DNA of 64,000 bases from the UHGV virus genome UHGV-1366990, one strand, 5' to 3'. The stretch is from a virus. Of this stretch, positions 3,190-49,149 are shown one piece after another; position 1 is the first letter of the stretch; every line of letters begins with the position of its first letter. The translations under genes and the position numbers were made by a program. The notes below the pieces were generated by a model. It made no database searches and had not been told where the DNA came from. It saw nothing but the letters and a program-made list of their open reading frames with translations.

Positions 3190-4698
3190 ATGGCAGACAT
3201 TCAGATTGTTAAGGTTAACGAAGTCCGCATGCGTTGCATCGCAGATCTTTCTATCAGGGAAGAACTTAATGACTACTTCAAATTCGAAGACCCGAACTTC
3301 GTTCCCAACCCCTTCTCTAAATGGGACGGGGTTGTCCGCCTATTTACCAAGTCATCTGGTCTAATCGATATCGGTCTGCTGTTTGAGGTATTTAAGTTCT
3401 GTAAGAACAACGGATACACCATTGAACTGGATCCGGCACTGAAGTACATTCAGGACATCCCAGATGAAGAAATCCGTGAATTCATCGACAGCCTGCATCC
3501 AAAGATCCGTACCGAAAATCACGAATATATCGATGCCGAGACTCGTGACTACCAGTACGACACCATCGCCAAGGCTATGCGTCAAACCAGATGCGTCTGT
3601 GAACTGGCTACGAGTGCCGGTAAGTCCTTTATTCTGTATGTCATGGCGCGGTACTACAGGCGGCGCAGAGAAGCTCTCGAAAGTCCTCTGAAGACGCTTA
3701 TCGTGGTGCCGTCAATCCACCTAGTCACTCAGCTGTACGACAACTTCGAAGAGTATGCGCATGGCAGTGATTGGAAGCCCGTTGTTAACACCCAGCTGAT
3801 TTTTGAGGGCGCGACAAAGGAGATCAGTAAACCAATCGTCATCAGCACATGGCAGGGCATTCAAGACCAGTCGAAGGAATGGTTCCACCAGTTCGGCGAT
3901 ATCGTGGTGGATGAAGTGCACACCTCCAAGTCTGAGAAACTGTCTTACATCCTGAACAACTGCATCTATGCCGACCAGCGCCTGGGGGTTACAGGTACGC
4001 TGGCGAACACCAAAGTTGCCGGGCTTCAGGTGGTGGCTCACTTCGGGGCGTACCATAAGATCATCACGGCTCGCGATCTTATCAATCTCGGGTACGCCAC
4101 TGACATCAAAGTGAAGATGATTCAGCTGAAGCACACTCCGGCGGATGCTGTTGGTCTAGACGGGGATTATTCCAAGGAAATAGAATACCTTATTACACAC
4201 CAGTCCCGCAACGAACTGATCGCCAAGATGGCACTGAATCTGAAAGGGAACGTGGCCATCATGTTCGAGCGTATTGACGCCCACATGATGGTTGTGTACG
4301 ATATGCTGAGCGCAGTCAAGCCCAACGTGTTTGTCATCAACGGGGAAGTGAAGATCGAAGACCGCCGCCGCATACAGAAAGCGATGGAGGATGGAGAAGA
4401 TATCACGTTGTTGGCTTCATACGGGACAATGCAACAGGGTGTGTCAATCAAGAAGCTACACCACCTTGTACTGGCACACCCGAGCAAGTCATATATCCGT
4501 GTCATACAGACATTGGGTCGTCTGATGCGTCAGCACTCCTCTAAGGACGTCGCGTGGATATGGGACTTAGTGGATGATGCATCGTACAACGCCAGCACGA
4601 ACCACGCTCTCAGGCACTCTCATGAACGTTACAAGTTTTACCTGGCAGAGCGCCACCCCGTGGAGTTCATGAAGGTGGCGCTGGGCAATCACGATTAA
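3190..4698 (+). CDS. uvsW: UvsW-like SF2 DNA helicase
   Basis: N-terminus resembles T4 UvsW; Walker A TSAGKS, DEVH box; internal ATG at 3190 (MADIQ...) of ORF 3097..4698. Confidence 0.85.
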   Translation: MADIQIVKVNEVRMRCIADLSIREELNDYFKFEDPNFVPNPFSKWDGVVRLFTKSSGLIDIGLLFEVFKFCKNNGYTIELDPALKYIQDIPDEEIREFIDSLHPKIRTENHEYIDAETRDYQYDTIAKAMRQTRCVCELATSAGKSFILYVMARYYRRRREALESPLKTLIVVPSIHLVTQLYDNFEEYAHGSDWKPVVNTQLIFEGATKEISKPIVISTWQGIQDQSKEWFHQFGDIVVDEVHTSKSEKLSYILNNCIYADQRLGVTGTLANTKVAGLQVVAHFGAYHKIITARDLINLGYATDIKVKMIQLKHTPADAVGLDGDYSKEIEYLITHQSRNELIAKMALNLKGNVAIMFERIDAHMMVVYDMLSAVKPNVFVINGEVKIEDRRRIQKAMEDGEDITLLASYGTMQQGVSIKKLHHLVLAHPSKSYIRVIQTLGRLMRQHSSKDVAWIWDLVDDASYNASTNHALRHSHERYKFYLAERHPVEFMKVALGNHD

Positions 4699-5066
4699 TC
4701 TTGATTCACATAGGCGGGGGTGGCCTCGCCTTCATCAGTTACTACGCCGAACAATTTATCCAGAGAAGCCAGACATTGTGAGTTTAGGTGTTCACTGATC
4801 GTATCCTTCAGCATTTCTTCGCTGCCCAATTTGAATGGCAGAACTTTCGCTTCGATGCCGTTTTCAAACGTCACCACACCGACATACAGACCAACTTTCA
4901 GACCTGTCATCAAACCCAGAGGGACAAATCGCGGCTCCGATGGTAAGTTCTTGTCTGACGCCAGCTGTGTCAGATAAACCGGGGTGCCTGTGATAAATTG
5001 ACCTGTGGTGAGGTTGGCGTCTGGCTTACTACACCCGACTGCGTATAATCCTACGAACTGTTTCAT
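4695..5066 (-). CDS. Hypothetical protein
   Basis: 123-aa minus ORF, 4-nt convergent overlap with uvsW; followed by a 360-bp AT-rich intergenic region. Confidence 0.5.
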   Translation of the reverse strand: MKQFVGLYAVGCSKPDANLTTGQFITGTPVYLTQLASDKNLPSEPRFVPLGLMTGLKVGLYVGVVTFENGIEAKVLPFKLGSEEMLKDTISEHLNSQCLASLDKLFGVVTDEGEATPAYVNQD

Positions 5067-5181
5067 ATATTACTCTCGTGTGTTGGTTAACATGACATAC
5101 ATATTATTTCGCGTGCATGTTTAGACCAAATAAATTAATTTTGCTGTTGAATAAAAACTGCTTTCTTGTTGAACAACGGCG

Positions 5182-5190
5182 TGGTATTAT
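5182..5190 (+). promoter_or_regulatory. Extended -10 element TGgTATTAT
   Basis: In 360-bp AT-rich region upstream of gene 45. Confidence 0.3.
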
Positions 5191-5229
5191 ACGAGTTGTG
5201 AGCGTTAGCGAACAACGAGTATTTGTTTT

Positions 5230-5249
5230 ATGAGCGAAGCGAATAGGAT
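5230..5249. repeat. 20-bp element ATGAGCGAAGCGAATAGGAT, also present inverted at 48746..48765
   Basis: Exact 20/20 match on opposite strands, 43.5 kb apart. Confidence 0.8.
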
Positions 5250-5258
5250 TAATAAAGA

Positions 5259-5295
5259 TTATTATCTTTAATAAAGGTTATTATCTTTAATAAAG
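5259..5295. repeat. Tandem direct repeat, 2 x 18 bp (TTATTATCTTTAATAAAG) separated by 1 nt
   Basis: Copies at 5259..5276 and 5278..5295; partial third copy upstream. Confidence 0.8.
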
Positions 5296-5298
5296 TCC

Positions 5299-5319
5299 AT
5301 AAATGCCGAAGGCATTTAT
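5299..5319. repeat. Perfect 9-bp-stem hairpin (ATAAATGCC gaa GGCATTTAT)
   Basis: Inverted repeat read directly from sequence. Confidence 0.8.
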
Positions 5320-5427
5320 TAATAACGCGTAGCGCAATTTGCCACTTGTTCTATAAGCAAAACACAGCGATACTAGATTTCGTCAAACATGACTTGAACC
5401 CCCACTATATTTTGAGGATACATACAA

Positions 5428-6096
5428 ATGCAAGAGATCACTCTCTCCGAACGTACACTTCAGTTGCTGGCCAACTTTGAGACCATCAACCCATCTATCG
5501 TTCTGACACCGGGCAAGATGCTGCGCAGTATTAATGATTCTTCTACTGTGATCGCCGTGGCGCAGATCGAAGAAGACTTCCCGTTTGAGTTCCCGATTCT
5601 GGACCTGACCAAACTTCTGGCCATCCAGCGCCTACCTTCCTTCAAAGGTGCCAAAGCCGAATTCCATCAGGACTACATCCTGTTGAAAGGCGAAAGCTCT
5701 CAGCTGCAATTCTGGCGTTCTGCTAAAGAACTCACTGTTGTTCCGGCTGACACCATTGAACTGCCGTCTGTTGACTTTGAAGCGATCATCACTCCAGAGA
5801 AGATGAAAGAACTGACCCGCGCCTGCTCTACCCTCGGACACAAGACTGTGCGTCTGGTTGCTCAGGGTGGCAAAACTCGCCTGGTTGCAACCACCACTAC
5901 CCTGGACAACTCCAACAACTACACTGTTGAGCTGGGCGAAACCGCGCTGCCGGACTTCGTAATGCCGCTGGATGTTGCCAACCTGAAAATGATCGAAGGC
6001 AACTACACTCTGCGTGCATGTGCTGATCTACAGATGGTGAACTTCCAATCATCAGACGCGACGATCAATTACTTCGTCGGCGCACAGATTGAGTAA
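5428..6096 (+). CDS. 45: Sliding clamp (gp45-like)
   Basis: 222 aa; N-terminal similarity to T4 gp45; followed by clamp loader genes as in T4. Confidence 0.85.
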   Translation: MQEITLSERTLQLLANFETINPSIVLTPGKMLRSINDSSTVIAVAQIEEDFPFEFPILDLTKLLAIQRLPSFKGAKAEFHQDYILLKGESSQLQFWRSAKELTVVPADTIELPSVDFEAIITPEKMKELTRACSTLGHKTVRLVAQGGKTRLVATTTTLDNSNNYTVELGETALPDFVMPLDVANLKMIEGNYTLRACADLQMVNFQSSDATINYFVGAQIE

Positions 6097-6176
6097 TCAA
6101 TCTCCAGCCTGATGCTATAATGTGTGGGCGGGGCGTTCCCCGCCTATTTGAAATGATTCTTCTACACGAGGCTGAA

Positions 6177-7170: not shown

Positions 7171-7593
7171 ATGGCCGCCCTTGGATTGTTCGATTACCTG
7201 GCTGCTCTGAACAGCAGCAAAGAAAACCTTTTGCGGTCTGATGACCCAGAAGTGTTGAAAGGATTCGACCCGTTTATGACGCGGCGTGGTTTAGCTCAGA
7301 GCAAAGACACTCTAGTGGCTGCGCAACAGATGAATAAGCTACATGCTATCACTCCATGGATGCAATGGTCATATGCCTTTTACACCATTCCGGCTCGGAA
7401 ACGCTACGACAAATGGTCTAAGAAAGGTCCGATTGATCCTGACGTGAAGTTACTCTCCGAGTACTTCTACATCAGCATGGAGAAGGCATCGGAGTACGTC
7501 CGTTTCTTGCCGAAGGAAGTCCTGGCCGAGATACGCGAGAAGATGAGACGTACTGAGCTGAACGCCAAAGCGAAACCGCGCAAGGCTAAGTAG
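7171..7593 (+). CDS. 62: Clamp loader small subunit (gp62-like)
   Basis: PARKRYDKWSKK resembles T4 gp62 PRGKRYGKWAK; conserved position after gp44. Confidence 0.7.
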   Translation: MAALGLFDYLAALNSSKENLLRSDDPEVLKGFDPFMTRRGLAQSKDTLVAAQQMNKLHAITPWMQWSYAFYTIPARKRYDKWSKKGPIDPDVKLLSEYFYISMEKASEYVRFLPKEVLAEIREKMRRTELNAKAKPRKAK

Positions 7594-32549: not shown

Positions 32550-35477
32550 ATGTCAAAGCTAAGTTTCCTCCAGTTCATGCAGGAAAGAGATCAGTTGGAC
32601 GAAGCGTTCAACTCCGCTCCGTATGAGCTGACTATGGGTAAGAAGAACGCAGGCGATGTGTTCTTCACCTTCGTCGACGAAGATGAAAAGGAATACCGTA
32701 TTCAGTTCTATACCCCTCAGGGGCTGGGTAAGAGTGTTCGTCAGGTTTTCATCGGCCAGAAGCGCGGCTCCGTCTATCCTGACGCCATCGCTCGCTTTAA
32801 GAACCCAATGCGCGTTATCGCTTCCATGATCGAAGCGACCAAACAATTCATGGCGACTCCTCTGGGCAAGACCATCGATGGCTTTGCTGTCAACTTCTCT
32901 AAGAAAGCGCTGGATCGTGGGATGACCCTGATTCCTAAGATCATCCGCCAGTCCGGCCTGAAGCAGAAACTGAATGTAATGGACCTGACCTACGCGCCTG
33001 TCCCTGACCGTGGTTATGTGTGGCTAGTTCGTAAGGGTAAAGATCCGGCTCAGGTATTTGACGGTCCGAAGATGCAGGGTATCACATGGGATGATCCAGA
33101 CAAGGTCGGTGACGTTCCGGTTCAGAACAGCGTTGATGGCGTTGTGGGTGGAACTGGTCAAACCATTGTTGTTGGTGTTGATTTCCGTTCTGAAATGGAA
33201 GACTTGGATATTTCGGTGTCTGGAAATGATATCACAGTGATGGATGGGCGCAAACTCGTAGTGTCTTTCACTGATCCCGAGACAGCTAGAATCATTTCTG
33301 GGATGAAAACCCCTTCTGCTGCAATTACCAATTTCATGCAAAAAACGAATCCAGGAAGATACACTGGAAACATCAAAGTTAACAGCACGAGTACCCGCAG
33401 TGGCAAGAAATATGAATTTATTGCTTCCGACTCATCTGGGAAACAATTGTTCAATCTAAACGTAGAAGATTCCAGAAAAACAAACTTGGGAACCGGGGCT
33501 GGTTCTTCTGAAATCGAAGTCAACCGCGAGTGGTACAACAGCTCGGACACTGGTCTGAAGTTGAAGAGCGGGCGAGACCCGATTCGTGGAAACTACGTCC
33601 GCCTGATAAGCGGTTCGAAAGAAGTAGCCGCATTCTATGGTTATGATTTTGACAAATATCCAGACGGGACTGAGGTATCTTGGAATATGAAGCGCGGCTT
33701 CACCAACCAAGACTTGGTCGGTGCGTCCATGACCAAACAGAAGAAAGGCATGTACGATCAGTACACTTTCAAGAAAGGTGCTCAGATAATTCTGGTGGTG
33801 GACGTTGACACCAGCAATGACACCAGCAATGACACCAGCAATGACAACGGTTGGAAACTCGCAAAAGCCGACGCCACTCAACCAATGTTAGTATGGGCGG
33901 GGAAAGAAAAGGGTCGCTTAGTCACGGCAAATATCGCTCCCCACTACAATGAGCCGGGTGTGTATGTTGGCGCATACATGAATGAGAAACCTGTGCGTGG
34001 GCAAAGTGCTGATTTCATTGCTCGTCAGTTGAAATTACCGCAAGTCCCTATCAGTATCCTGAATGATTTCACCATGGCGTCCACAAATTTTTGGAAAGGT
34101 TCTCAGCAGAAGTCCGCGCCAGCTGACTCCAACACCACAATCGGGGCAACCAGTATCGATCAATTGCGTGACAGCGGTTTCATCGCTCGTGTTCTGGGTA
34201 TCATTGATACCAACATTGACCAGAAAGCAAGCTATCTCCCAGGGGAAAGCATTAAGAAGATCGGACAGGCGCGTTATCAAACTAAAGGTGGTCTGGTGAT
34301 CATCGTCAGCTTCGATTCAGTCGATGGCAAGAATCTGACCTACAACGTGTTCTCTGAAATCGAAACTCAGCCTGGTGTCATCTCTGGCGATGCTCGTCGG
34401 GTGGCAAACGAAATTATGGAAACGATCACACACGTGGCCGAACATCAGTATCGTGGCGGATGGGAAATTAGCGCAGTGCCAACAAGCGCTCCATACCCTA
34501 TCAAAGCCATTCGCCGTTCTCGGGGCTGGGGTTATGTGGAAACCGCAAACTGGACTCTGAAAGTGTCCGACGCTGTCCTGAATCGTGTGAAGCCAGGGAA
34601 CACTGCTCTACTGGAACTCATCAAAGAGCCTCCGCGTGGCAAGCACCTGCTGGAAATCATCCCAGAGAAGGGCGACAAGACCCTGATGCTGAAAGATCGT
34701 ATTACCGGGGCCATCTATGGTTCTATCGACCTGAATGCCCAAGGTGCTGATCTGGTCAACTCTGGAACCCTGAAGATACCAAGCAACGCCATGGTGTTTG
34801 GTGAGACTGTCAACGGTATGTCCATTCGGTGGAATGTCAATTTCCCCGAAACAGGAAAATATGCCGGTACTTCTATGATAACCAACGTAACATATTATCA
34901 CGACAAAGGCAAAGTTGCATTCACCCCAATTGTCTCTCAGAAAGGGCGTACCCTGAACAATCCGAAGACATATGAACTTCCTTTAAACAAAGATATGGTC
35001 CAGAGTGTGATTGATGAGATTTCATCAAAAATGGAATATCTTTCCAGAAACCTCCAACAGTTGAAAAGTCAGTCATACAACCCAAACCAGGTGTTCTTGA
35101 ACGATATAACCATCACGGATAAAGGTGAAGTGATTTGGAATGATTACAACTTGTCTGACGGCAAAGTTACACAAATTATGCTGTCCATGATAAGCGCAGA
35201 AAATAAACGCCTGGAGAAAGTAGCAAACACGCCGGATATCAATATCACATTGCCAAAGAAACAAGCTGAAGTGGTAGAATTTATAAACCGGATGATTGAT
35301 ATTGATCTCACCCCTTATGTGAGAACCCCCAAAAACCGTGATGTGGTATTATTTTACTCTTCTGAATTGTCGATAAACCAACTCAACAACATAGAACGCC
35401 TGGGAAGAGAAACAGGAAAATGGTCTCTTCAGTCAAACGGCGGTATGGGTCATGCACTATTTCTGAATGTTTGGTGA
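32550..35477 (+). CDS. Large hypothetical protein (975 aa) containing a (DTSN)3 tandem repeat
   Basis: Long ORF, RBS AGGAG; no catalytic motif recognised. Confidence 0.75.
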   Translation: MSKLSFLQFMQERDQLDEAFNSAPYELTMGKKNAGDVFFTFVDEDEKEYRIQFYTPQGLGKSVRQVFIGQKRGSVYPDAIARFKNPMRVIASMIEATKQFMATPLGKTIDGFAVNFSKKALDRGMTLIPKIIRQSGLKQKLNVMDLTYAPVPDRGYVWLVRKGKDPAQVFDGPKMQGITWDDPDKVGDVPVQNSVDGVVGGTGQTIVVGVDFRSEMEDLDISVSGNDITVMDGRKLVVSFTDPETARIISGMKTPSAAITNFMQKTNPGRYTGNIKVNSTSTRSGKKYEFIASDSSGKQLFNLNVEDSRKTNLGTGAGSSEIEVNREWYNSSDTGLKLKSGRDPIRGNYVRLISGSKEVAAFYGYDFDKYPDGTEVSWNMKRGFTNQDLVGASMTKQKKGMYDQYTFKKGAQIILVVDVDTSNDTSNDTSNDNGWKLAKADATQPMLVWAGKEKGRLVTANIAPHYNEPGVYVGAYMNEKPVRGQSADFIARQLKLPQVPISILNDFTMASTNFWKGSQQKSAPADSNTTIGATSIDQLRDSGFIARVLGIIDTNIDQKASYLPGESIKKIGQARYQTKGGLVIIVSFDSVDGKNLTYNVFSEIETQPGVISGDARRVANEIMETITHVAEHQYRGGWEISAVPTSAPYPIKAIRRSRGWGYVETANWTLKVSDAVLNRVKPGNTALLELIKEPPRGKHLLEIIPEKGDKTLMLKDRITGAIYGSIDLNAQGADLVNSGTLKIPSNAMVFGETVNGMSIRWNVNFPETGKYAGTSMITNVTYYHDKGKVAFTPIVSQKGRTLNNPKTYELPLNKDMVQSVIDEISSKMEYLSRNLQQLKSQSYNPNQVFLNDITITDKGEVIWNDYNLSDGKVTQIMLSMISAENKRLEKVANTPDINITLPKKQAEVVEFINRMIDIDLTPYVRTPKNRDVVLFYSSELSINQLNNIERLGRETGKWSLQSNGGMGHALFLNVW
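33807..33848 (+). repeat. In-frame 12-bp tandem repeat (GACACCAGCAAT) x3.5 encoding DTSN repeats
   Basis: Three exact copies inside ORF 32550..35477. Confidence 0.85.
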
Positions 35478-47026: not shown

Positions 47027-48637
47027 TTACTCTTTGGTGCCGAAATTACCACCATTGTCTTTTAATTCTGCCTTGATGTCAATCTCACCCGGACCCGTAG
47101 GGGATGCAGGGGTTGCACCTGACAGAGAAGAAGCGCGACCAGCACCTTCGGCATATATGATGTTACCATTGATCGTCTGAGCGACAGTCAGTTTGTCAGC
47201 GATTATCTCAGTCGTTAGAATCTTAGGAACCTTCAATGTCCCACCGACCTCCAGAGTCTCGCAGATAATGCGCAGAATATTCTGCGCTTGCATTTCCGCT
47301 AGGTCACTGAATTTCATCAGCGCTGTGCCCGCAACCACGTTGGAGTAATTGTTGGAATGCAAATGATAGACCTCACCTGTCTTGCGCTGAACTTCAGTTC
47401 CTTTGACCGTCAGGTTGTGGTCCCCGCCGACATAATAACGCTTGTTGAACATCGTCAGGTCATAGTGGTCTTTGACGGACTTGTTGACCACATCACCATC
47501 CGGCAACATTTGCTTGTAAGACCCAGACTTATGCATCCAATGAAGACGTTCACCACCAGGGGTGTCATCCACTTCCATAATATGCCCAGCTCGGGACACC
47601 ATGACGTTATTGTACGGGTATTTAGATCCACCCGCAGCCGGAACCATGGTTTCTCCAGTGTTGTCAATATCCTGTACTCGCCCAGTAGGAGCCGGAGTCG
47701 GTTGTTCCTTTGGAGTACGATCTGGGATAGGTTCTGACCATTTACCATTCTGCTGCGCAGGCGCGGCTGTGGCTGTGTTAGCAGGACCAGGCCAACGATA
47801 TCCCAAGACCGAAGAACGTCTGAAACGACTGACCTTCACTGAATCGGATTGGTTGCCACCAATACACCAGACATAGTTTGCATCGAACTTCTGCACAAAC
47901 GCTACGTGTCCAAATGTGGGGTTGTTACCACGCCGGAAGACTACGATAGCGCCATATTGTGGTGCTGACAGTGGAGTGCCCCATGTAAGGTAAGATCGGG
48001 CAAGAGCGGAGCGCGTAGACGTGTATCCAGCCTGTATCATAACCCAACCCACGAACGCCGCACACCACGACACTTCATCTTCAGAAGCACCAAGGGAGGT
48101 TGTCTTGTGATATTCTATAATGCGCGGGTTGTTGTTGAACTTTCCAGCGTACTCCTTGATACCCAATTCGCCACGAGCGATTGTCATCCACTTCTCTGGA
48201 TCATACCCGCCAACAGGTGGTTGTGGATCTGGTTGTGGTTCGTCTTCTTGTTTCACAGGAACGTCAGTGACGGCGTTGTACGCCTGACGTTCCACAGATT
48301 GAACGACCTGCCCGAGAGCCAGCGGGTTTGTGTCGGCGCCATCAGTAGGGCTTGAACCAGTCCAAGTCCAGGTGATGCGTAAATTCTGGTATGCTTCGTC
48401 AAGGGCGAACCCCATAACCTCAGTGCCAGGAATGATACCCGTTGGAGACCAACCTAAACCAGCAGAGGAGGCGTTTGAAGCAGGCATCAGTACCTTCGCC
48501 CATGGGAGTTTGTCCGTAGGCAGGAGGACGGGATCGTCGGTGTGTACGCCATATATGCGAACAGCAACTCGCCCATTTTGGTCTGGATCGTTGACATCTT
48601 CAACGGTGCCGTAAAACCATCTCATATTGTCTAACAT
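47027..48637 (-). CDS. 5: Baseplate hub/tail-puncturing protein (gp5-like) with CHAP/NlpC-P60-like domain
   Basis: N-terminal OB region resembles T4 gp5; central SWCAAFVGWV...GHVAFV Cys/His motif; C-terminal beta-helix-like region. Confidence 0.75.
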   Translation of the reverse strand: MLDNMRWFYGTVEDVNDPDQNGRVAVRIYGVHTDDPVLLPTDKLPWAKVLMPASNASSAGLGWSPTGIIPGTEVMGFALDEAYQNLRITWTWTGSSPTDGADTNPLALGQVVQSVERQAYNAVTDVPVKQEDEPQPDPQPPVGGYDPEKWMTIARGELGIKEYAGKFNNNPRIIEYHKTTSLGASEDEVSWCAAFVGWVMIQAGYTSTRSALARSYLTWGTPLSAPQYGAIVVFRRGNNPTFGHVAFVQKFDANYVWCIGGNQSDSVKVSRFRRSSVLGYRWPGPANTATAAPAQQNGKWSEPIPDRTPKEQPTPAPTGRVQDIDNTGETMVPAAGGSKYPYNNVMVSRAGHIMEVDDTPGGERLHWMHKSGSYKQMLPDGDVVNKSVKDHYDLTMFNKRYYVGGDHNLTVKGTEVQRKTGEVYHLHSNNYSNVVAGTALMKFSDLAEMQAQNILRIICETLEVGGTLKVPKILTTEIIADKLTVAQTINGNIIYAEGAGRASSLSGATPASPTGPGEIDIKAELKDNGGNFGTKE

Positions 48638-48671
48638 ATTGAATTCCGGTTGTCAAACAAGGATTTGAAGG

Positions 48672-48679
48672 TATTTATG
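48672..48679 (-). promoter_or_regulatory. Late-promoter-like CATAAATA (minus strand) upstream of gp5-like gene
   Basis: Plus-strand TATTTATG; same ~35-nt spacing to start codon 48637. Confidence 0.45.
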
Positions 48680-48745
48680 CGCAGCTGATTTTGCCTTATA
48701 TACTATAGGAAGCTCTGCTTCCGTTCATTTTATTTGTTTTATTCG

Positions 48746-48765
48746 ATCCTATTCGCTTCGCTCAT
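48746..48765. repeat. Inverted copy of the 20-bp element at 5230..5249
   Basis: Reverse complement identical to 5230..5249; preceded by shared 11-mer TATTTGTTTTA (48731..48741; 5220..5230). Confidence 0.8.
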
Positions 48766-48973
48766 CAAACCGCCCTATGCGGGCAGCACCATTCCAATGC
48801 CATGGAGGCATAAGGGCGAGGCAATAACTGTACACCCCAGAACACTCCTTGAAAAATGGTATTTTACTGACAATCTGATTCAAAACAGACAAACACCAAC
48901 AAATGACTCGGGAACAAGCCCATTATAGCAATTTCAGGTAAAGAGAGTGCGTGTTAACCGATTTTACAGTTAA

Positions 48974-49001
48974 GCCAATAAAAATCCCGCCGAAGCGGGA
49001 T
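48974..49001 (-). terminator. Minus-strand rho-independent terminator
   Basis: ATCCCGC/GCGGGAT stem followed on the minus strand by TTTTTATT. Confidence 0.5.
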
Positions 49002-49149
49002 TACTGTTTCTTAGACAACCTGACCTTGAGGGCTTCGGTTAACAAGTCAAGATGCCATGGCATCGACTCGTTGATTTCAAATATACTATAGCCGTGTAAC
49101 TTCAATTCATCACACATCACGAAGTAGGATAATAAATCAGTTTCAAACA

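Follow-up and report, generated by a model that had tools for sequence, protein, structure and literature searches.

The spacer studied here occupies positions 5067-5427 of a 64,000-nucleotide stretch of viral DNA (the window) and separates two divergently oriented genes by 361 bp. Its left edge adjoins a minus-strand gene (4695..5066) encoding a 123-residue protein of phrog_4255, a family with no assigned function, and its right edge the plus-strand gene for the gp45 sliding clamp (5428..6096), which has a GAGGA Shine-Dalgarno sequence at 5414-5418. The genes gp44, gp62 and regA lie downstream of gp45, and UvsW lies on the upstream side. Over the 3 kb around the spacer, the DNA is 95-98% identical to the Escherichia and Shigella Ackermannviridae phages ZQ1, YX22, A221 and Ag3, with lower identity to Limestonevirus, Kuttervirus and Taipeivirus. 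Judged by this similarity, the source phage is an Agtrevirus-like member of the Ackermannviridae, the ViI-like phages that are widely used in biocontrol and therapy. Sequence and fold searches with the 123-residue protein were uninformative and no DNA-binding fold was seen; its Ag3 homologue was reported to be acidic, with a pI of 4.8 (Ag3 paper). A search for tRNA genes found none. The window has 49.3% G+C, and the description of the spacer as AT-rich holds: positions 5226-5325 have 76% A+T, the highest value of any 100-bp stretch and shared with one other (both 0.76).

Of 274 matching phage records, 268 align with the greater part of the spacer. We compared five groups, namely Aglimvirinae, Kuttervirus, Taipeivirus, Miltonvirus and the Erwinia phage phiEa2809, and found 70-99% identity in four of the five (76-79% in Kuttervirus, about 70% in Taipeivirus), which bears out the view of this region as a conserved regulatory spacer. 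For Miltonvirus, blastn aligns just a short piece. The gp45 proteins of the five groups are 52-82% identical to that of the window. A family alignment of ten genomes resolves the spacer into conserved blocks: GTTTAGACCAAA; the tract TTGTTGAAC, followed by TAnTATACGA and then by GTTGTGAGC..GCGA.CAACGAG; and further blocks reading GAGCGAAGCGA, CACTTGTTCTATAA, GCGATACTA and GCGTCAAACATGACTTGAA.

Promoter-like sequences face both genes. The putative sigma-70-like promoter of the minus-strand gene (5101..5129) combines a -35 hexamer TTGGTC (5129-5124), a 17-nt spacing and a -10 hexamer TAATAT (5106-5101); its GTTTAGACCAAA block is kept in nearly all ten genomes, with TAATAT or TATTAT as the -10, and a simple promoter scan did not list it. 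A putative gp45-proximal site on the plus strand (5346..5374) comprises TTGTTC (5346-5351), 17 nt and GATACT (5369-5374), hexamers that lie in invariant or nearly invariant blocks of the same alignment. Between these sites are two TTGnTGAAYAA direct repeats, 22 bp apart (5140-5154 and 5162-5176, plus strand) and mostly conserved in the family, and an upstream element, AAAAACTGCTTTC-N16-TGGTAT (5153..5190, plus strand), which overlaps a -10-like TATTAT at 5185-5190. The TAnTAT of this element is invariant across the ten genomes, and the first hairpin described below begins about 5 nt later. The putative promoter here has no good -35 and no MotA-box spacing, and the scan did not list it. In the general form AAAAAC..CTTTTC-N16-TGTAY, the upstream element is confined to loci that carry the hairpin module, with two occurrences in the window and three in the whole LIMEstone1 genome: the spacer itself (site A), a locus upstream of gp5 (site B) and one upstream of gp6 that lies outside the window (site C).

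The first-pass annotation had pointed to two boxes of the form TGAGCG(A/T)(A/T)GCGAA. Both exist, but their pattern and coordinates needed slight correction, to TGAGCG-TTA-GCGAA at 5199-5212 and TGAGCG-AA-GCGAA at 5231-5243, which are one loop base apart. The first box sits in a plus-strand hairpin, H1 (5195..5216; GTTGT/GA/GC/GTTA/GC/GA/ACAAC), and the second in another, H2 (5225..5249, 25 nt; GTTTTAT/GA/GC/GAA/GC/GA/ATAGGAT), with the two sharing a common design of lower stem, tandem sheared-type G.A/A.G, two G-C pairs and loop. G.T and G.A pairs would form in single-stranded DNA too. Folded alone, H1 adopts exactly the proposed structure (-8.9 kcal/mol, z -3.35). H2 alone also folds as proposed (-4.2 kcal/mol, z -1.9); its stability under the nearest-neighbour model is marginal, at -4.2 and -3.6 kcal/mol (z -1.9 and -0.4), and when 135 nt of the window are folded together it faces competition from an alternative pairing peculiar to this lineage. 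RNAalifold, run on nine genomes, recovers both hairpins.

Comparison among relatives shows which parts of these hairpins are kept. The H2 core GAGC..GCGA is invariant across 21 distinct copies, while the pair adjoining the G.A tandem varies (6 copies with T-A, 15 with C-G) and the loop reads GAA, GTA, TTCA, AAC or ATA; at Kuttervirus site C, a 7-bp stem extension replaces the loop altogether (GAGC-GAGGGCGTCAGCCCCCTC-GCGA). The loop-closing pair of H1 is C-G in four variants and T-A in four, around loops of GTTA, TTT, GAA, GTCA or AAA, and at Miltonvirus site C the H1 stem is a wholly different 7-bp helix (GTAGTTC/GAACTGC) with pairing retained. The H1 and H2 cores are found also in Miltonvirus and in phiEa2809; hairpins of this type are absent upstream of gp45 in a Vibrio phage whose gp45 is 36% identical. 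The U.G pairs and G.A tandems are limited to the sense strand of the three downstream genes, gp45, gp5 and gp6, and the complement would hold C.A and C.U/U.C mismatches, so the fold is specific to the plus strand at site A and to the minus strand at site B. We infer that the GA-GC core would serve as the recognition surface of a trans-acting factor, probably a protein.

The same comparison accounts for the 20-mer ATGAGCGAAGCGAATAGGAT, which had been noted at 5230-5249 with its exact reverse complement 43.5 kb away at 48746-48765. Both copies were verified, on the plus and minus strand respectively, and the search for further copies returned only these two matches in the window even with up to three mismatches. 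The shuffle expectation was 0.01 and none of 100 shuffles gave two matches, so the pair exceeds chance expectation, and the 20-mer is conserved in related genomes as a specific recurring element; a 33-mer around it occurs in two places in almost every Aglimvirinae genome. Over the longer alignment of 5225-5249 with 48770-48746, the two sites agree at 24 of 25 bases. Read against these alignments, the 20-mer is the core of hairpin H2 and not a duplex protein site. In Aglimvirinae, sites A and B have T-A as the pair adjoining the tandem and site C has C-G, which suggests conversion between A and B and would explain why the 20-mer is identical; this exact identity probably reflects concerted evolution of paralogues, with conversion the probable route. 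The 11-mer TATTTGTTTTA does adjoin both copies of the 20-mer, as had been claimed, and its sole matches in the window are 5220-5230 and 48731-48741, both on the plus strand. At the spacer it mostly overlaps the 5' arm of H2 (5225-5231). It is not conserved there in XF4 or in other genera, and close relatives do not keep it at the distant site (a 2-nt deletion in P46FS4, a different sequence in XF4), so it is lineage-specific. Its lack of conservation also led us to reject the 11-mer as a means of RNA-RNA pairing between transcripts of sites A and B.

A tandem repeat is also present, but its period is 19 rather than 18 bp and it spans 5249-5295 rather than 5259-5295, with 2.5 plus-strand copies of TTAATAAAGRTTATTATCT at 96% matches. 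It had been read as a set of iterons, and this does not survive comparison: among near-identical phages the number of units is 1.5 in Ag3 and XF4, 2.5 in the window and 3.5 in A221; Kuttervirus, Taipeivirus, Miltonvirus and phiEa2809 lack the repeat, with unrelated AT-rich sequence in other genera; and the 19-mer has no other copy in the window. An iteron-type, plasmid-like origin would comprise no fewer than 3-4 direct repeats whose conservation extends to relatives; here the copy number is polymorphic and the unit is confined to one lineage. As far as the alignments speak, the 19-bp repeat is a recent, lineage-specific expansion in an AT-rich spacer and not an iteron array, and more generally short polymorphic AT-rich tandem repeats should not be read as iterons. 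We also considered a selection-expanded, ToxI-like antitoxin array and rejected it, given how short the unit is and how little it resembles ToxI.

The hairpin described at 5299..5319 stands as reported, a palindrome ATAAATGCC-GAA-GGCATTTAT on the plus strand with a 9-bp stem (5299-5307/5311-5319) that is 100% complementary (-8.8 kcal/mol, z -4.7). Its arms are identical in Aglimvirinae and Kuttervirus, around a loop of GAA or GTCA, and it is missing from Taipeivirus. We rejected it as an intrinsic terminator, which would have a G+C-rich stem and then a U run on the transcribed strand: on the plus strand there are just three G-C pairs and a UAAUAA tail with no U run; a terminator scan flags it on the minus strand only, with the tail GGACUUUAUU. 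A pair of late promoters was likewise rejected. The arms carry ATAAATG on both strands, with a core of TAAATG instead of TAAATA, where a T4-type late promoter was defined as TATAAATA and TAAATA is the core in promoters annotated within the Ackermannviridae and occurs in most of the LIMEstone1 late promoters that were sampled.

Site B lies at 48638-49149, between gp5 (47027-48637, minus strand) and gp26. A small conserved ORF comes first, then a terminator at 48980-49000, which the Ag3 paper catalogues as Torf083, and then about 340 nt of non-coding DNA with 69-75% identity across genera. Just past the terminator, an extended -10 promoter-like sequence on the minus strand (TGCTATAAT, 48922..48930) points into the site, and TGnTATAA(T/C) is present at this position in four of five aligned genomes. 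The following features are all on the minus strand: the same upstream element as at site A (AAAATACCATTTTTC-N16-TGTAC, 48830..48865); a stem, P1 (48811-48797), whose loop CCAU, paired with AUGG at 48792-48789 (in GGAAUGG), makes an H-type pseudoknot (48789..48811 overall); a hairpin, P2, with 100% pairing (CTGCCC-GCATA-GGGCGG, 48770..48786); the H2 copy that contains the distant 20-mer (GTTTGAT/GAGCGAAGCGA/ATAGGAT, 48746..48770); a 25-nt AT-rich tract; and a hairpin GGAAGC-AGA-GCTTCC (48708..48722), which in Taipeivirus reads GGATGC..GCATCC, a compensatory change. Downstream of this module is the conserved T4-type late promoter of gp5 (CATAAATA, 48672..48679), annotated in LIMEstone1 and Ag3.

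A covariance-model match covers 48741-48819 at 95 bits. Across 15 distinct sequences of the site B/C core, pairing holds in 91.6% of cells, and sliding the partners lowers this to 28-46%. Seven pairs show changes on both sides, two of them in P1 and two in P2 (where a U.G occurs in 13 of the 15 sequences), so that compensatory pairs exceed the slid-partner control as expected of a structured RNA. One pseudoknot pair is A-U in nine sequences and C-G in six and is never broken, and all 40 matches to the pseudoknot pattern in IMG/VR, of which 37 fall in Ackermannviridae-type contigs, are concordant (29 A/T, 11 C/G, 0 discordant). The site B/C sequences are paralogues and close relatives, and the covariation therefore represents few independent events. 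Several other readings of site B were discarded. A small ORF running through the 20-mer (...FDERSE*) is shifted in frame between genera by 1-nt indels in the P2 and H2 loops; indels that are not multiples of three show that the element is not coding, with the nucleotides conserved though the frame shifts. A hammerhead core (UGAUGA-GC..GC-GAA) is set aside because the bases 5' of the GA are AY elsewhere (UUACGA, UCACGA); a hammerhead would have a CUGANGA ... GAAA core with three stems, and Rfam returned none up to E = 10. A predicted long-range helix closing the site B domain was unsupported in a by-eye comparison of relatives, and no Rfam support was found for the idea that P2 mimics a CRISPR type I-F repeat, which it resembles.

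The complete LIMEstone1 genome (152,427 bp) contains five GA-GC hairpins at exactly three loci, A, B and C, all oriented in the sense of their downstream gene (gp45, gp5 or gp6) and all followed by an AT-rich tract. Site C joins the architectures of the other two, with H1, the P1-pseudoknot-P2 unit and H2. A covariance model of the B/C core matches at the known loci only, and the P1-pseudoknot pattern occurs at most twice per Ackermannviridae contig in IMG/VR. Matches to that pattern in three non-Ackermannviridae contigs were judged to be chance matches in G+C-rich sequence; the rest of the module was not found there, L123 and L136 scoring only 16-20 bits and L150 giving no match. Extra copies from a loose hairpin-pattern scan (for example at 5929 and 16614) were likewise put down to chance, in coding regions. 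Rfam gave no match in the whole window at gathering thresholds and none that was credible to E = 10 in either spacer. We also asked whether H2 could be the spacer between -35 and -10 hexamers (TGTTAC-17-TAATAT); this fits site C and some site A copies but fails at site B, and in Kuttervirus it fails at site C too, the insert there having about 15 extra nt.

Taken together, we lean, with a little better than even confidence, towards a reading in which the spacer is a divergent promoter region whose core is one copy of an Ackermannviridae family of structured elements, most likely RNA transcribed in the gp45 direction. The module is probably a previously undescribed element, structured and probably RNA, that is specific to enterobacterial Ackermannviridae. 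At site A it runs from the upstream element and TAnTAT through H1, H2 and an AT-rich tract enlarged by the recent 19-bp duplication to a further hairpin; the paralogous modules at B and C, both upstream of baseplate genes, have the pseudoknot and an extra hairpin ahead of H2. The promoter pointing into site B, the -10-like sequence about 5 nt before H1 and the pseudoknot make RNA the most economical reading. Each module sits on the upstream side of a gene-proximal promoter (TTGTTC-17-GATACT for gp45, late TAAATA promoters for gp5 and gp6), so the modules may represent small RNAs of their own, or early leaders, and not parts of the main mRNAs. We infer that the module is transcribed and acts as a regulatory leader or small RNA bound by a factor. 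The terminator scan placed no canonical terminator after any module. The Ag3 and LIMEstone papers (LIMEstone: PMC3296691) give consensus-predicted promoters and terminators only and leave the hairpins unmentioned. Our literature search found no Ackermannviridae transcriptome study.

A different job for the same transcript is conceivable, and we hold it to be doubtful: the three modules may be the phage's early replication origins, of the T4 type, in which a promoter and a structured transcript would form a persistent R-loop in the AT-rich tract after H2 and so prime the leading strand. An AT-rich tract of at least 20 nt follows every module at all three loci in all genera examined, as an R-loop origin with an unwinding tract downstream of its promoter would have, although at B and C the tracts are just about 20-25 nt. 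Like T4 oriF, oriG and oriE, the module has a promoter-like element reading into an AT-rich tract and several copies per genome, and T4 has several origins, with oriE, oriF and oriG at points of transcription divergence and skew shift and oriE using an early promoter (PMC3016281). In T4, oriF and oriG are R-loop origins that combine a promoter with a DNA unwinding element, and oriE pairs its early promoter with iterons. Sites A and C are at divergent transcription and skew-shift points, site C coinciding with the cumulative GC-skew minimum of LIMEstone1 at 124-128 kb; GC skew is confounded with gene orientation, however, and site B is at neither a divergence point nor a clear skew extreme. The phage has T4-type replisome genes and an annotated RNase HI gene, and UvsW adjoins site A. 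Against this, T4 origins have no common motif, no conserved folded RNA domain and no need of structured RNA (PMC3016281), whereas the module shows no MotA-box spacing, its direct repeats are unconserved and no RepE-like gene was found with it; neither an initiator gene nor conserved iterons were found. A more elaborate version, in which the pseudoknot-bearing transcript would seed the R-loop at early origins and the R-loop might also provide a clamp-loading junction that activates the adjoining late promoters, takes its cue from the position of the modules just upstream of the gp45, gp5 and gp6 promoters, and we think it unlikely.

The hairpins might instead fold or extrude on one strand of the DNA while it replicates or recombines and be read by a replication or priming protein, in the manner of G4/St-1-type priming signals, plasmid ssi sites or N4 hairpin promoters. 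Strand specificity would suit this equally well, and the window's H1 has GCGTTAGC and its H2 GCGAAGC, which are the mini-hairpin DNA motifs GCGNNAGC / GCGNAGC reported at G4, St-1 and alpha3 priming sites and N4 promoters (PMC13037366); phiEa2809 carries GCGTCAGC and GCGTAGC. Yet most relatives break the consensus (GCTTTGC, GTGTTAAC, GCTTCAGC, GCAACGC, GCATAGC), which is kept exactly in the window and phiEa2809 and not in Kuttervirus, Taipeivirus or the H1 of Ag3/XF4. The phage has a T4-type primase-helicase with no known single-stranded stage, no N4-like RNA polymerase is annotated in LIMEstone1, and the pseudoknot and the conserved promoter into site B suit RNA better, all of which makes single-stranded DNA elements improbable. 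We are about as sceptical of duplex operators or iterons for a DNA-binding protein, with the 19-bp repeats, the palindrome and the 20-mer as candidate sites. The 20-mer recurs and is conserved, the palindrome arms are identical in two subfamilies without covariation, as for a dimer site, the TTGnTGAAYAA repeats are two helical turns apart, and an in-silico 'putative middle promoter' overlies the box on the opposite strand in the LIMEstone1 record. That promoter, though, was assigned by T4 consensus only (PMC3296691), on which ground we rejected it; the 19-bp unit varies in number and is absent outside Aglimvirinae; and the neighbouring 123-residue protein, whose Ag3 homologue is reported as acidic, shows no DNA-binding fold. 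Moreover, H2 tolerates loops of varying sequence and length and, at Kuttervirus site C, a 7-bp stem extension with an insert about 15 nt longer between its conserved halves, which would wreck a duplex site and not a hairpin, and the compensatory stem changes and strand-specific G.U and G.A pairs point to a folded single strand. The conserved spacer and the recurring 20-mer of the first-pass reading stand, while its iterons and its duplex site for a specific DNA-binding protein do not. It is least likely, and in our view highly improbable, that the repeats have no dedicated function and are leftovers of duplication or conversion in an AT-rich spacer that tolerates them: both the 11-mer and the 19-bp repeat, being lineage-specific, have that look, but the pseudoknot module of sites B and C and the H1/H2 cores are conserved in syntenic places across five groups.

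The module offers something new for a family whose regulation has so far been known solely from in-silico promoter lists: a conserved, strand-specific structured element in three copies per genome, ahead of the clamp gene and two baseplate genes, with a clear GA-GC-loop-GC-GA core and a covarying pseudoknot as concrete targets. Should they turn out to be origins or regulators of late-gene activation, the modules would be the first such cis-elements defined for the Ackermannviridae.

Known systems offer partial parallels. The lambda nut (boxB) and HK022 put sites are small hairpins, single or tandem, in the 5' part of separate transcription units. The module resembles them in being near-identical within a genome and oriented with transcription, hence with copies inverted on the chromosome; it differs in that its loop is unconserved, its conserved part being the internal G.A tandem with two G-C pairs, and in having no boxA, no known N-like protein and a position upstream of gene-proximal promoters. 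With the mini-hairpin DNAs (PMC13037366), the window shares the motifs, whereas most relatives lack the consensus and neither a single-stranded stage nor an N4-type polymerase is known. The fold of the module invites a further comparison. The operator of T4 gene 32 mRNA consists of a pseudoknot followed by an unstructured AU-rich tract. The module is not at gene 32, has three paralogous copies and has a tract that stops short of the start codon, with promoters and about 110 nt intervening at gp45; it nevertheless shows the same succession of a compact H-type pseudoknot or hairpins and an AU-rich tract, which at site A reiterates UUAAUAAAG.

A third copy of the module, the conserved strand-specific hairpin element, lies outside the window at site C of the related complete genome LIMEstone1, on the minus strand upstream of gp6 (127,180-127,390; 7180-7390 of sequence L033). 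Here, the GA-GC hairpins H1 and H2 are combined with the P1-pseudoknot-P2 structure. This is also the principal point at which transcription diverges in LIMEstone1, and the cumulative GC skew of that genome reaches its minimum there. Additionally, Yersinia phage CAU_YEP3 (PQ863687.1), which is Aglimvirinae-like, has three matches, not two, to the 33-mer around the 20-mer core of H2.

The hexamer TTGAAC recurs at window positions 5169-5174 and 5393-5398 and at Kuttervirus site B. Its distances to a -10-like hexamer are unusual (10, 6 and 15 nt), and it might be a recognition element in its own right.

Near site B, a conserved small ORF of ~49 aa (49003-49149, minus strand) directly follows gp26, ahead of the terminator at 48980-49000. 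At the nucleotide level it is conserved in a pattern resembling that of a coding region. The annotations of XF4, LIMEstone1 and Ag3 call it hypothetical; in Ag3 it is orf083, with 'no identifiable ribosome-binding site'.

YX22, PC3, PH4 and SW16-7 carry an extra ~657-bp gene between gp45 and gp44, a hypothetical gene that possibly encodes a homing endonuclease; compared with L002:3098-3834, the window junction (6097-6119) lacks it. UvsW of Dickeya phages is interrupted by an intron or homing endonuclease. Elsewhere, the window holds a perfect 12-bp tandem repeat, TGACACCAGCAA, at 33806-33846 (3.4 copies, score 82).
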